Part shown: positions 1 through 61,961 of the stretch, piece after piece
Layout of the letters: every line of letters starts with the position of its first letter
Numbering within the stretch: position 1 is the first letter of the stretch
Virus record (IMG/VR): IMGVR_UViG_3300038393_002936
Source of the DNA: a virus
Reading direction: 5' to 3' (one strand)
Length of the DNA stretch: 64,000 bases
Position numbers and translations under genes: made by a program
The notes under the pieces: model-generated
The model's input: only the letters and a program-made list of their open reading frames with translations
Databases searched by the model: none
What the model was told of the DNA's origin: nothing

Positions 1-917
1 GCGGGTCGGCATCTGGAGTGGGTGGAAATGGTCAGCCGGACGGGACTGGAGGGATAGCTGGGACTGGCGGTGGAAATGGAGGTGCGGGTGGGGCACCTTC
101 TGTCGCGGCCCAGAACGGGTTTTCTCCGGGTGGTGGCGGGGGTGGGGTGTACGCCGGGGCGGTTGGGAGCGGGGGGGAAGCTTCTCCGGCAGGGAAGGGA
201 GCAGACGGACAAGTCGTACTGACCTGGGATGACCCCCCGACCAGCAGCCTTCCGCTCTATATTTGCGGGGCGTCCCCCGTCTCGGGCGGGCTGCCACTAT
301 GCGTGAGCGGGGACCAGGTTAAAAGTGGCGGGCTTCCCCTCGTCCTGCTCGGGTCGGCTCCCTTTTCGGGCGGCCTGTCACTTGTCCTCCAGGGCCCGCA
401 CCCGTTCAGTGGTGGGTTACCTCTGGTGGCGGTCGGGGCCGGACCCGTTAGTGGTGGGCTGCCTCTCTTCCTACACGGGGCGACCCCTCTTTCGGGTGGG
501 CTCCCGCTTTACGTCGGTGCGGCCTTCGCTGTGTCCGGCGGACTCCCCCTATTCACCAAGGGCCCGATGCCAGTGTCGGCCGGGCTCAACCTGTACGTGA
601 AGGGGGCACCTCCCTCGGCCGCGGACGGCCTTCCCCTTATTCTCGTTGGTGACCAACCCTGGCGGCAAGACGGGTTACCGCTCGTCCTCTGGGGCTCCCC
701 CATCGGGTACGAGTCGGCCGGGCTGAACCTGTATTTGAGGACCGGCGAGGGGGGTGGGTTACCGCTCGTGCTATTGGGCCCGGGTGCTCCCTCCTCTGCC
801 GGAATCCCCCTGGTCATTACCGGGGCGACTGGCGTGACCGGCGGCCTCCCCCTCGTCATGGCGAGCCCGGTCGGGCCCGGCTCGGGACATCTTCCTCTGT
901 ACGTATGCGGGTGGTGA
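1..917 (+). CDS. Gly-rich tail fibre/minor tail protein with ~14-aa GGLPL repeats (5' end outside window)
   Basis: Frame is open from the window start. Gly-rich block ending GKGADGQVVLTW, followed by about 16 SGGLPLxxxG repeats. Lies next to other tail-like genes. Confidence 0.6.
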   Translation, partial: GSASGVGGNGQPDGTGGIAGTGGGNGGAGGAPSVAAQNGFSPGGGGGGVYAGAVGSGGEASPAGKGADGQVVLTWDDPPTSSLPLYICGASPVSGGLPLCVSGDQVKSGGLPLVLLGSAPFSGGLSLVLQGPHPFSGGLPLVAVGAGPVSGGLPLFLHGATPLSGGLPLYVGAAFAVSGGLPLFTKGPMPVSAGLNLYVKGAPPSAADGLPLILVGDQPWRQDGLPLVLWGSPIGYESAGLNLYLRTGEGGGLPLVLLGPGAPSSAGIPLVITGATGVTGGLPLVMASPVGPGSGHLPLYVCGW

Positions 918-918
918 T

Positions 919-2415
919 GTGGCAGATTATCAGGTCAGTTTGAGTTACGCCGGACGGAAGCTGGTGCCCGCCGGGCAGGTGTCTTGGAAGCTGGTCCCGC
1001 AACGGTCCGCGGACGGCACTCGCCGGACCGGCGTCTTCCAAATCACGCTCAACGGCCGCCTGGTCGCCTTCAAGGGGAGTCCCGACCCGTCCCTGGGCGG
1101 CGATTTTTTCTGGCAGGGAAGCGGGTATCCGCCCGACCCCGACCCCGCCACGACCGACCCCTCGACGCGAGTGGCCCGTCTGCGAGACAAGATGGGTGCG
1201 CTCCGCGCACTGTTTAGTCAGGACGGGCAGACCTTTCTGATTCAGCCGGGCGACGGTTCGGCCCCCATCCGGTTCAACCCCCGTATCGGCGATATTGCGA
1301 TTGATGAGGGGTCCTGGTTTCAAGATGCCAAGTACAGCATCTCGATGGAAGCCGACGTTATCTATTTCGGGACGACGGCTCTCGACGCCTCGCAGATGGG
1401 TCAGGCCGACAACGCCCCGAGCCACGAGTGGTCCACCGAGCAGGCGGACGACGTCGGGCGCATTTTCAAGGTCACGCACACGGCATCCGCGGTCGGCCGC
1501 CGGCAATACGACGGCAGCGGCAACGTGACGGCGGAGGGCTGGCAGGTCGCCCGGGATTTGGTCCTGGGAGGGCCACTGGCCGGGACCGGGGCCGCAACGC
1601 AGCTGGGGTTCGACTCGCAGTTTTTGACCGCGACCGGCGTTCTCAACCAGTCCTCGTTTCAGCCCTACAACTACGTGAGAGGCCAACAGGTCGACGGGCC
1701 GGGCGGGCGGTTCACGGTCACCGAGACCTGGACCTGTGTCGACCCGACCGCCGCGGGGCCGACCGGGCAGACTGCGGGTAAGGCGGTCGAAGATTTGACG
1801 GTCGAGAACCGGTATGATGTCGAGACGGGTTTATATACGGTCACGGCGAACGGGGTGGTGACGGGGCTCGAAGAACGAGACCCGGTCACCCGCAATTTTA
1901 TCCGCTCGCGATACGACAATGCTCAGCTTCGCTTCACGGCCATCACCCCGTCGGTGCTGCTGGGAGTGTGCCAGAACACAACCGGGCTCACGCTCAACCC
2001 ACAAGTAGTTTCGAGCACGATTGCCCGCAACAAAATCACCGGCGTTTTTCAATACTCGATGGTGTTTAACACGCGGGTCGGTAATACCGATGCGAGCTAC
2101 CTGACCGAGTCCATCGAAATCGAATGGGAGAACCCGGCGGACGTGTTCGCGGAAATCGGCGTCGTGGGGCGGGCGGCCGGGCCCATCCTACAGGTGATTG
2201 GTTCGAAAACCCGGGCCGCGGTCACGGTCTCAGCCTCCATTCAGGTGCCGGTCGCCTATAACGTGTGGCCCACGATTCCCGTCTTTAATCCCTTGCCGTA
2301 CGCCCTGACGGCCATCGGGCGGGTTCCCGCACAGATTTTCGTCGCGAGCGACAGGCCTCATTTTGATTTGAAGCGGGGTCATTATAGTCGGTCTACGACC
2401 TACGTATTTCAGTGA
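919..2415 (+). CDS. Putative minor tail/baseplate protein
   Basis: 498-aa ORF starting 2 nt after the previous stop; Thr/Val/Gly-rich beta-type composition; tail-cluster context. Confidence 0.55.
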   Translation: MADYQVSLSYAGRKLVPAGQVSWKLVPQRSADGTRRTGVFQITLNGRLVAFKGSPDPSLGGDFFWQGSGYPPDPDPATTDPSTRVARLRDKMGALRALFSQDGQTFLIQPGDGSAPIRFNPRIGDIAIDEGSWFQDAKYSISMEADVIYFGTTALDASQMGQADNAPSHEWSTEQADDVGRIFKVTHTASAVGRRQYDGSGNVTAEGWQVARDLVLGGPLAGTGAATQLGFDSQFLTATGVLNQSSFQPYNYVRGQQVDGPGGRFTVTETWTCVDPTAAGPTGQTAGKAVEDLTVENRYDVETGLYTVTANGVVTGLEERDPVTRNFIRSRYDNAQLRFTAITPSVLLGVCQNTTGLTLNPQVVSSTIARNKITGVFQYSMVFNTRVGNTDASYLTESIEIEWENPADVFAEIGVVGRAAGPILQVIGSKTRAAVTVSASIQVPVAYNVWPTIPVFNPLPYALTAIGRVPAQIFVASDRPHFDLKRGHYSRSTTYVFQ

Positions 2416-59693: not shown

Positions 59694-59798
59694 GGAGAAT
59701 GGGGCGAACATCCAATCCCCCTTATTAACCTTCTCTGCCGGAACTACGTTCTCGCCAGCTCCGCTGACTGCTTGATTGACTACTTATTGGAGAAGTTT

Positions 59799-60761
59799 AT
59801 GTCTTACACGATGACCGCTGCCGACCTGTTCGCCGGACTAGGCGGAAATACAGAAGGAGCGGCCCAGGCTGGGGTTCACGTAGTGGTCGCAGCTAATCAC
59901 CTGCCCCATGTTGTTGAGACCCACGCGAGGAATCATCCCGAGACCTCGCACTATACACAAGACCTTCAACAGGCCAACTTCGGCACCTGGCCCGATTTCG
60001 ACCTGCTTCTCGCCAGTCCCTGCTGTCAAGGTTTCAGCAACGCGAGGGGCAAGGATAAGCCCCAGCACGACGTGAGCCGGTCGACGGCATGGGCCGTCAT
60101 CTCGGCGGCCGAGGCGAAAAAGCCCAAATTCTTGATGGTGGAGAACGTGCTGGGCTTCCGGCGGTGGACACTGTTCCCGCAATGGAAATCGTGCCTGGAA
60201 AACTTGGGGTACGTCCTACACGAGAACGTCCTGGACGCGGCCGACTTCGGGGTCCCCCAGGAGCGAGAGCGGCTGTTCGTAACCGGCGTCCACCGGTCCG
60301 TGTCCGACTGCCCGGCGGTGGTCGCCCGCCCGGGGCTTAACCGAGTGCCGGCCTCGGCTATCATCGACTGGGAGTTCGACCGAAGGAGCCTAGTCAACAA
60401 GCCAGGACGGGCCGAAGCCACCCTTCAGCGAATCGCCAACGGTCGCCAGCAATTCGGCTCGCGGTTTCTTGCCCCTTTCTACGGGAGCGGGTCGGGGACA
60501 ACCGGTCGCAGCCTGGACCGCCCGGTGGGGACGATTACACGGAAGGACAGGTGGATGCTGGTCGACAGCGACCGTTGTCGCATGCTCCAACTCCACGAGA
60601 ATCGGCGGGCGATGGGATTTCGGGACGACTACCTTCTGCCCGACGACCCGAAAACGGCCCTGGCCATGCTCGGGAACGCGACCTGTCCACCGGTCGTCCG
60701 CCAAGTGGTTCAGACTTTTCAAAATTACGCGGGAGCGACCACTGAAAGGAGTGCCGCATGA
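59799..60761 (+). CDS. DNA (cytosine-5) methyltransferase, no cognate REase nearby
   Basis: Motif I DLFAGLGG, IV SPCCQGFS, VI ENV, VIII QERER, X LGNA. Confidence 0.9.
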   Translation: MSYTMTAADLFAGLGGNTEGAAQAGVHVVVAANHLPHVVETHARNHPETSHYTQDLQQANFGTWPDFDLLLASPCCQGFSNARGKDKPQHDVSRSTAWAVISAAEAKKPKFLMVENVLGFRRWTLFPQWKSCLENLGYVLHENVLDAADFGVPQERERLFVTGVHRSVSDCPAVVARPGLNRVPASAIIDWEFDRRSLVNKPGRAEATLQRIANGRQQFGSRFLAPFYGSGSGTTGRSLDRPVGTITRKDRWMLVDSDRCRMLQLHENRRAMGFRDDYLLPDDPKTALAMLGNATCPPVVRQVVQTFQNYAGATTERSAA

Positions 60762-61961
60762 CGAGCACATGGCAGGTCCAGACCATCGCCACCTTCGACC
60801 ACAAGTACCTAATTGTGAACTTCCCTGCCGGAATCGGCGAACGCGAGTTGAACGCCCAGAAGGCTGTCGCCGAGCAAGCCCCGGTTCTCCTCCGGAGTGT
60901 TCGGGAATTGCTTACCGCTGGTCATGTCACCGTCCCTGGAGGGAATACGTTGGTGGCGGTTGACCGGGCCAAGTTCGAGCAACTCCAAAAGGTAGTCGAG
61001 TCTATCGACCCTATTCCGGCAGGGAAGTGAGGTAGTCCGACGACTCACCTGTGAGCACAGCGAACCATCCAAACTCCCCCATTAACGGGAGCGAGCAACA
61101 ATGAGGCACCGTAACCAGCCCGTATTACAAATTGACGTTTCATAACACCCCGTAATGGGCTTTGCCTTCTAAGCTCGGTCACACTGTCCGAGTTCAGGCA
61201 CTATAACTTTTCCGCGAGGGACGAAGTCATGAGAATTGTGGTTTACGACTATTATGGCCAGGCCGTTTACGTGGACGGCAAGTTAGCCGGATATTACGGA
61301 CACAACAACGACTTTGATGTCGCAGAACTTTGTGGCCAACTCGGCATCTCTTTCGAGAAACGCTCGGTGCGGTGGGAAGACTGGCCGGGCCTAAAAGAAA
61401 ATATGCGAGCGGTATACGACCCGCCCGTAAAGCTGGAGACCGTCGAGCAGCATTTTGCGGAACTGAACCGACGGCGGAAAGTCGACCGTCTGGAACAACT
61501 CAAAATGGAAGTGGCCAAACTGGAACAGGAACTGAGTCACTAAAAAGGAGCAATTATGAGTTTCCCCCTCGCACCGGAAGACCTCATCGACATGATTTAC
61601 GAACGAGTCCGCGGCATGAACACCGCGGAACTGGTCGCGTTTTGGCGAAAGAATTTTGACGATGTCGATGTGCGGGAGTCTCAGACTGGGACTGGGTGTG
61701 TCGCGGTGTTTGAAATCGCCGTCTGAGGAGGTGCCCGTGACCACCTTACTCCGAGACTACAAGGAAATCGACGCCCACCACGAAGTTTATTGTCGCCAGC
61801 GGGCCCAAATTGAGCTCCTGAACATCCTGCTCGAAGCGGAGCGGAACACGCCGGGTCACCGGATGAACCGCACGAACCGGCTCTGGCGACTCCGGGAAAT
61901 TATCGAGCGGTATCCCGAGTTCGAATATTTAGCCGAAGGAGTTTTAGGTGACAAAACGTGA
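60758..61961 (+). CDS. Small hypothetical ORFs (60758-61030, 61229-61543, ~61737-61961)
   Basis: RBS and coupling on the + strand. Confidence 0.5.

Follow-up and report, generated by a model that had tools for sequence, protein, structure and literature searches.

The window and its repeated word

The DNA considered here, a stretch of 64,000 nucleotides (nts) from the IMG/VR virus record IMGVR_UViG_3300038393_002936 and called the window throughout, carries terminase, capsid, tape-measure and portal genes, a sigma-like gene and a C5 methylase gene and, judging from its sequence, is part of a tailed phage. The phage is large and comes from soil. Scattered over it are copies of a short asymmetric word, word A, which are described below together with the phage protein that may bind them and the hairpin units that occupy some of them. 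Near-identical strains come from related JGI samples, with contigs of up to 125-166 kb. The phage is probably temperate. A weak integrase match (E 2e-4, below the Pfam cut-off) lies about 19 kb beyond the window, and no integrase match was obtained in the complete genomes of three relatives without the word. A member of the Planctomycetota is the probable host, because one relative, a prophage whose capsid is 53% identical, adjoins Gemmataceae host DNA in contig G001:C5; other relatives were binned with unrelated taxa.

The 12-mer of word A occurs exactly 35 times in the window (22 copies on the plus strand and 13 on the minus strand), about once per 1.5 kb, and essential genes are included. 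When one mismatch is allowed, the count rises to 49 against 2.5 expected, with a maximum of 8 in 100 shuffles. The 8-mer TCCGGCAG occurs 57 times, while a third-order Markov model predicts 4.2 occurrences. The informative extent of the word is about 14 bases, TTCCGGCAGGRRAG. A reading of the sequence alone had listed about 21 plus-strand and 13 minus-strand copies, usually preceded by TT. All its coordinates hold except 60840, which should be 60820, and it missed the copy at 29037; the preceding T residues are borne out, since among 39 sites 37 have T at -1 and 28 have it at -2. No description of word A was found in the literature searched, a search outside which most subscription papers fell.

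Distribution and origin of the copies

Genes were called with a simple gene finder written for this analysis. Fourteen exact copies lie in called genes, compared to a mean of 0.37 and a maximum of 3 in 300 synonymous-codon shuffles, which rules out a protein-coding artefact, as the sequence-only reading had argued. The coding copies fall into five frame and strand classes, and a wider set of 22 is divided equally between sense and antisense (11 each). An RNA-level role, as a CsrA-like or ribosome site, is disfavoured because antisense use is as frequent as sense use; no Rfam match was obtained either. Word A is co-oriented with transcription at 20 of 37 sites, so the claim that its orientation is independent of transcription stands. 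The statement that it saturates the genome was too strong, since 21 of the 35 exact copies lie outside called genes, in 19% of the window (1.7 copies per kb outside gene calls versus 0.27 per kb inside), and gaps on a single strand reach 7-8 kb. Methylation of its CCGG core receives no support, the observed to expected ratio of CCGG in the window being 0.99.

The coding copies appear to have arisen by substitution, because most of them align without gaps to orthologous residues of relatives. The copy at 29037 aligns in this way with most relatives, and the copy at 30177 falls where the sequence is variable. In comparisons of strains differing by about 6%, none of 20 four-fold sites within the word has changed, compared to 15.2% in the background (one-sided p 0.037), and none of 77 non-coding word positions has changed, compared to 4.7%. 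These unchanged positions provide modest evidence of selection or drive at the DNA level.

Word A in relatives and in host genomes

The core of the word, GCAGRRRAG, is enriched in several relatives, with 21 occurrences versus 2.6 expected in the Gemmataceae prophage, 28 versus 6.7 in G154 and 7-10 versus about 1 in each of L110, L115 and L117. It is not enriched in relatives G152, G153 and G155. Some core matches in low-GC relatives lie at shared orthologous positions and are therefore not independent. The 5′ side of the word varies by lineage, while the 9-mer core is common to phages whose GC content is 34-60% and whose capsids are 53-68% identical. What looked like dialects in freshwater relatives proved to be collagen-like G-x-Q repeats and were dropped, and the TGGAAT words of L110, L115, L117 and L119 are tandem coding repeats. 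The word-free relatives have repeated words of their own (G152:135724-147184, G153:39161-52504 and G155:7071-15481), which are one-stranded, clustered in the small-gene arm and promoter- or operator-like.

In contig G001:C5, the prophage part contains all 16 copies of the commonest core variant, and the 38 kb of host sequence contain none. Of 151 Gemmatales genomes, 150 have the 14-mer at background frequency. Only G077 departs from this, with 25 copies that belong to a longer host repeat, the flanks of which are unrelated. This repeat is dispersed and structured, exceeds 100 nts, is present in about 22 copies and carries the 14-mer inside a hairpin (L121-L140); its match to word A is probably a coincidence. 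In five host genomes, the core is neither generally enriched nor strand-skewed. Word A is thus confirmed as a real and phage-specific signal. Of the parallels drawn by the sequence-only reading, a protein-binding DNA signal resembling stoperators is supported, while a Chi-like or uptake-like host signal is not, because the probable host group shows no enrichment of the word.

A tandem winged-helix protein as candidate reader

The candidate reader, P0121, a protein of 167-173 aa, is encoded at L243:9653-10174, about 17 kb beyond the window and near the putative integrase. It belongs to a family of tandem winged-helix proteins. An AlphaFold2 model (pLDDT 90.8) shows two domains, each a helical bundle with a wing; the first, of the LexA DNA-binding type (PF01726, E 1e-12), fits LexA DNA-binding domains with an rmsd of 1.1-1.6 Å. 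The arrangement recalls LexA and its SOS box in this fold and in a site that overlaps the predicted promoter of the protein's own gene. However, no peptidase or dimerisation domain was found in P0121, which has a second winged-helix-like domain instead, and word A is asymmetric rather than palindromic. Other binders had been proposed. The helix-turn-helix (HTH) protein encoded at 38232 is a poor candidate, being conserved in relatives without the word, and the XRE (7283) and ParB-like (54474) proteins have no match in the word-bearing relatives examined, which are partial genomes.

The word overlaps the predicted promoter of the winged helix-turn-helix (wHTH) gene in three different phages. 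In strain L243/L240 of the present phage, word A lies at +1 of the wHTH operon's predicted promoter. In L297, that phage's own word lies in the spacer between the -35 and -10 boxes of the same operon. An inverted word pair surrounds the -35 box of the homolog in G240:C320, a contig of 7 kb that is assigned to a phage on the strength of two homologous genes. The chance of a word at a promoter is roughly 3-5% genome-wide and nearer 10% at intergenic density. Within the window, the promoter match at 51025 is paralogous to that at 48996 and therefore not independent. Paralogous small genes (49129/51159 and 49402/51429/51719) occur here in repeated cassettes over 49129-52036, with duplicated promoter regions.

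L297 was selected solely by its wHTH gene. Its recognition helix, HRAVMDRI, differs from that of the present phage, and the prediction of a shared core failed, GCAGRRRAG being found twice versus 1.4 expected. It has instead a related word of its own, TCCGGCGGG, with 16 copies in 20.5 kb on both strands, 12 of them in genes versus 2.6 expected and a maximum of 6 in synonymous shuffles. A second repeat, an 8-mer in L297:6896-16352, encodes the peptide LV-ADWL-E in at least 5 proteins and appears to be a repeated small protein domain, not a DNA signal.

The recognition helix RAI-DRL is found in the present phage and in the word-bearing Gemmataceae prophage, while G152 and G153, in which the word is not enriched, have HAV-Q. 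The prophage capsid is 68-70% identical to those of G152 and G153 and 53% identical to that of the present phage. Hence the helix appears to track the word and not capsid identity, which counts in favour of P0121 as the reader. In addition, a homolog with an AVRDRL helix lies on a contig of 166,451 nts, and the word-bearing L119 record has the same size. At IMG/VR loci with other helices, no clear word enrichment was found.

Double-hairpin units and inverted pairs

Some copies of word A hold 33-nt units (Table 1), each made of two 15-nt hairpins (6-bp stem and triloop, the second mostly GNA) and three further bases. The unit starts at CAG, and most units end by recreating word A. In 18 units, 91% of stem cells are paired and 7 of 12 pairs show two-sided changes; because a hairpin filter selected the units, which are also mutually related, these figures lean towards structure. 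The GNA triloops suggest that the hairpins form in single-stranded DNA rather than RNA. Lone perfect 15-nt triloop hairpins also occur away from word A, at 21543, 22918, 42590, 49353, 49707, 50706 and 63681, several of them intergenic.

Strains differ by whole units. In the portal gene, the window is 33 nts longer than L111, in frame, and the unit there is probably an insertion because relatives are shorter at that place, in a region that is variable. At 22757 the window is 66 nts longer than L112, while at 59092 it is 33 nts shorter than L146, which looks like an in-register deletion or unequal exchange. In a different gene, strain L244 likewise exceeds L243 by 33 nts, again in frame. G154 and the Gemmataceae prophage yielded no arrays and the 151 Gemmatales genomes no units, so that word A probably predates the units. 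The search for a mobilising enzyme gave none, and specifically no HUH-type enzyme among about 40 proteins scanned, from a part of the genome that amounts to about half. Collection scans for inverted pairs or units returned nothing related, and the elements had only chance matches among phages and plasmids by blastn.

A second motif, motif B, often adjoins word A and in places is enclosed by a head-to-head word pair. Such pairs bound a gene that is found in only some strains: L146 has an extra 133-aa gene between two motif B composites, at the breakpoint of its alignment with the window.

Table 1. Features of the window, with positions on the whole stretch.
Feature	Position	Strand or orientation	Remarks
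Word A, dispersed copies	186..61027	both strands	35 exact, about 48 with good near matches
Tape-measure gene, four exact copies	13728..17828	13728+, 13873-, 15977+, 17817+	three frame classes
Two coding copies	25342..25526	25342-, 25515+	gap-free versus L117 protein; unchanged in strains L111 and L112
Copies in 538-aa head gene	29037..30188	29037+, 30111+ (near match), 30177-	coding
Head-to-head pair, exact and near match	5954..6022		lone hairpin remnant at 5941-5957
Head-to-head pair between two tail genes	22679..22763		adjoins array
Head-to-head pair	42999..43036		14-nt spacer; 33 nt after stop codon
Head-to-head pair	49790..49826		13-nt spacer
Head-to-head pair enclosing motif B	56315..56377		
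Head-to-head pair enclosing motif B	57056..57129	motif B in other orientation	
Head-to-head pair enclosing motif B	59682..59741		alignment breakpoint versus strain L146
Motif B, core CCAATCCCC	46862..61085	both orientations	about 12 copies, confined to small-gene arm
Left half of word A, then one perfect and one partial hairpin	9135..9168	+	
Two tandem units in word A	22752..22830	-	strain L112 has plain word
Single unit in word A, portal gene	31790..31835	+	in frame; absent from L111, present in L113
One unit after left half of word A	53249..53288	-	right half decayed
One unit ending in word A	57026..57067	+	
Two-unit array	59091..59168	+	strain L146 has one more 33-nt unit in register
Two-unit array ending in intact word A	59615..59693	+	
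One unit ending in variant word A	59730..59771	-	
Plain word A	61016..61027	+	strain L146 carries 33-nt unit here (window -33 nt)
Sigma70-like promoter match	48996..49047	+	near-match word immediately after -10 box, followed by motif B
Promoter match paralogous to 48996	51025..51076	+	exact word just downstream of -10 box
Tape measure	10210-19272		3020 aa
Capsid	27099-28133		
Terminase	33575-35803		

Word A as a proposed repressor operator

On balance, we favour word A as the operator of a phage-encoded, autoregulated wHTH repressor, P0121. The probable temperate lifestyle and the word positions unchanged between strains also count in its favour. The protein would bind the asymmetric word and repress its own promoter and early promoters, and it would also occupy dozens of further sites on both strands. 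These distant sites may silence the 166-kb prophage throughout, or they may be a sink, titrating the repressor away as the phage DNA is copied. Copies in genes would have been fixed by substitution wherever the proteins tolerated the change. The 33-nt units and inverted-pair composites may be a later, lineage-specific addition that moves into word A, is lost from it again and recombines there, a traffic that would mostly regenerate an intact word; the direction of this movement and the enzyme behind it are likewise conjectural. A more ambitious picture, offered tentatively and rather doubtful as a whole, is that a tandem winged-helix protein marks an entire genome on both strands independently of transcription, that word and helix vary in step from lineage to lineage, and that the 33-nt element of one lineage enters these marks site-specifically, in frame even in virion genes, and restores the site.

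The closest parallel is the stoperator system of Cluster A mycobacteriophages such as L5 and TipsytheTRex, whose genomes carry more than 20 asymmetric 13-mers at promoters and in short intergenic gaps (PMC9283540, PMC6550527). The sites here are likewise asymmetric, of similar length and number (35 exact in 64 kb), their motif differs among relatives, and the candidate repressor has two DNA-binding domains, as judged from its model; a monomeric stoperator repressor uses two domains to bind its site and stops elongation. Sites also lie at predicted promoters (L243/L240, L297, G240:C320 and position 48996 of the window), with none at the wHTH gene of the Gemmataceae prophage or of G095. In contrast to stoperators, 40% of the copies lie inside genes, inverted pairs and hairpin insertions occur, the domains are LexA-type winged helices rather than the HTH pair of L5, and the probable host is a planctomycete. 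Word A would work most like the stoperator system, but it is not classed as a stoperator because stoperator function requires orientation with transcription (PMC9283540), a bias that is absent here.

This lack of orientation, in the genome as a whole and between sense and antisense coding copies, weighs against the operator, as do several further observations. In the Gemmataceae prophage, the 200 bp that precede the wHTH gene contain no word, and the homolog in G095:C86 has a similar helix with no enriched word and none upstream. Conversely, no wHTH homolog was found in the word-bearing G154, which is 61% complete, and G152 and G153 have the domain but no genome-wide word. Only one of four strict promoter-like sites in the window carries the word. 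The core is shared so widely that it is conservative for an immunity operator, and the phages compared include few independent ones, so that shared ancestry or host could link helix and word. Finally, a repressor leaves the hairpin units unexplained.

Alternative explanations

The units could instead point to a selfish mini-element, an unlikely origin for the word itself. A single-strand transposase or recombinase would insert units at near matches, loss of a unit would leave a perfect word, and words would accumulate by drive without benefit to the phage. Exact 33- or 66-nt presence or absence at four sites, one further in-register indel, the covariation of the stems and the gain or loss of a gene between composites agree with this account; the absence of arrays from the word-bearing G154 and Gemmataceae prophage, the gap-free alignment of most coding copies and the lack of an HUH-type enzyme among the proteins scanned do not. 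Hence such a footprint explains the units better than the word. The GC clusters and double-hairpin elements of fungal mitochondria are comparable, being short palindromic units with short direct-repeat flanks, presence or absence between strains, constrained stems, merging and shuffling (PMC4478555; Paquin 2000 cited there). The units share with them adjacent hairpins, a short direct repeat, variable presence between strains and stem constraint, but occur in a bacteriophage, inside a long defined word that is usually regenerated, and as fixed 15-nt triloop hairpins. Bacterial REP, REPIN and BIME repeats, which are associated with RAYT transposases, also form hairpins after stop codons, in tandem arrays or in inverted pairs with spacers. 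They resemble the tandem or inverted extragenic clusters seen here, but the units have no GTAG guide at the hairpin foot and start at CAG, and no RAYT/Y1 HUH transposase was seen among the proteins scanned.

A priming signal is less probable still. The lower strand of the word offers a pyrimidine template beside CTG, a DnaG-type primase would start at AG on both strands, and the units, with CAG and hairpins, would be landing pads similar to the G4 complementary-strand origin. The G4 primer strand does begin within GCAG, with purines and a similar hairpin after it, relatives encode DnaG, minus-strand copies are spaced more evenly than random (P 0.02-0.03), and all word pairs less than 80 bp apart are head-to-head. 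In G4, priming starts at CTG 3′ of stem-loops (PMC6783573), a geometry that the units share on one strand and that solitary words lack. However, G4 has a single origin as opposed to dozens of sites, most of which have no hairpin, and the L297 word lacks the CAG triplet. Plus-strand copies are spaced at random, gaps extend to 7-8 kb, and G152, G153 and G155 encode DnaG without having the word. Furthermore, DnaG primases recognise about three bases.

We also give little credence to a site for another phage protein, involved in packaging, DNA ejection or modification or nucleoid-like, and encoded in the remaining 80 kb. About half of the 166-kb genome lies outside the sequence read, and use of both strands regardless of transcription suits a structural role, but no positive evidence points to such a protein, which would not account for the three wHTH promoters with a word.

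The least probable alternative is a host-protein site, Chi-, KOPS- or uptake-like, that the phage has recruited. The uptake sequences of Neisseriaceae and Pasteurellaceae are asymmetric, occur on both strands, have coding copies born by substitution and form inverted intergenic pairs, and they number hundreds to thousands in a host chromosome. They also exist in dialects (PMC7371117). Word A matches this anatomy and one Gemmatales genome has 25 copies, but the word is restricted to the phage, with no link to competence and, in the Gemmatales (the probable host group only), neither the enrichment nor the strand skew expected of Chi or KOPS, the one exception being the unrelated repeat of G077.

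Other features of the genome

Tetranucleotide counts show GCGC at 0.19 of its expected frequency in the window, and GCGC is also low in L115-L117; GATC is absent from the 4-mer palindromes counted. Together these suggest host restriction pressure. In the tape-measure protein, family matches are confined to the first 720 residues. Directly after its gene, a Fic-domain gene and an XRE partner (9167-10151) form a possible toxin-antitoxin pair; in strain L112, genes of comparable size precede the tape-measure gene instead. An endonuclease VII/HNH-like gene (36241-37508) follows a short second copy of the start of an ERCC4-like gene (35775-36266), as if it had been inserted into that gene. The terminase of the close strain L111 (L111:1444-4890) contains an intein with a LAGLIDADG domain, and that of the window has no intein.

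Implications for Planctomycetota phages

Most known operator arrays that span a genome belong to Cluster A mycobacteriophages, in which the orientation of the sites is essential. If the operator interpretation is correct, an orientation-free array read by a different repressor fold would be an independent way to silence or switch a large prophage, in the poorly studied phages of Planctomycetota. P0121 and word A constitute a directly testable protein-site pair, and the natural variants of helix and word offer material for a recognition code. If the double-hairpin units do move, they would rank with the smallest phage elements that show site-specific mobility; a look-alike has so far come from mitochondria.

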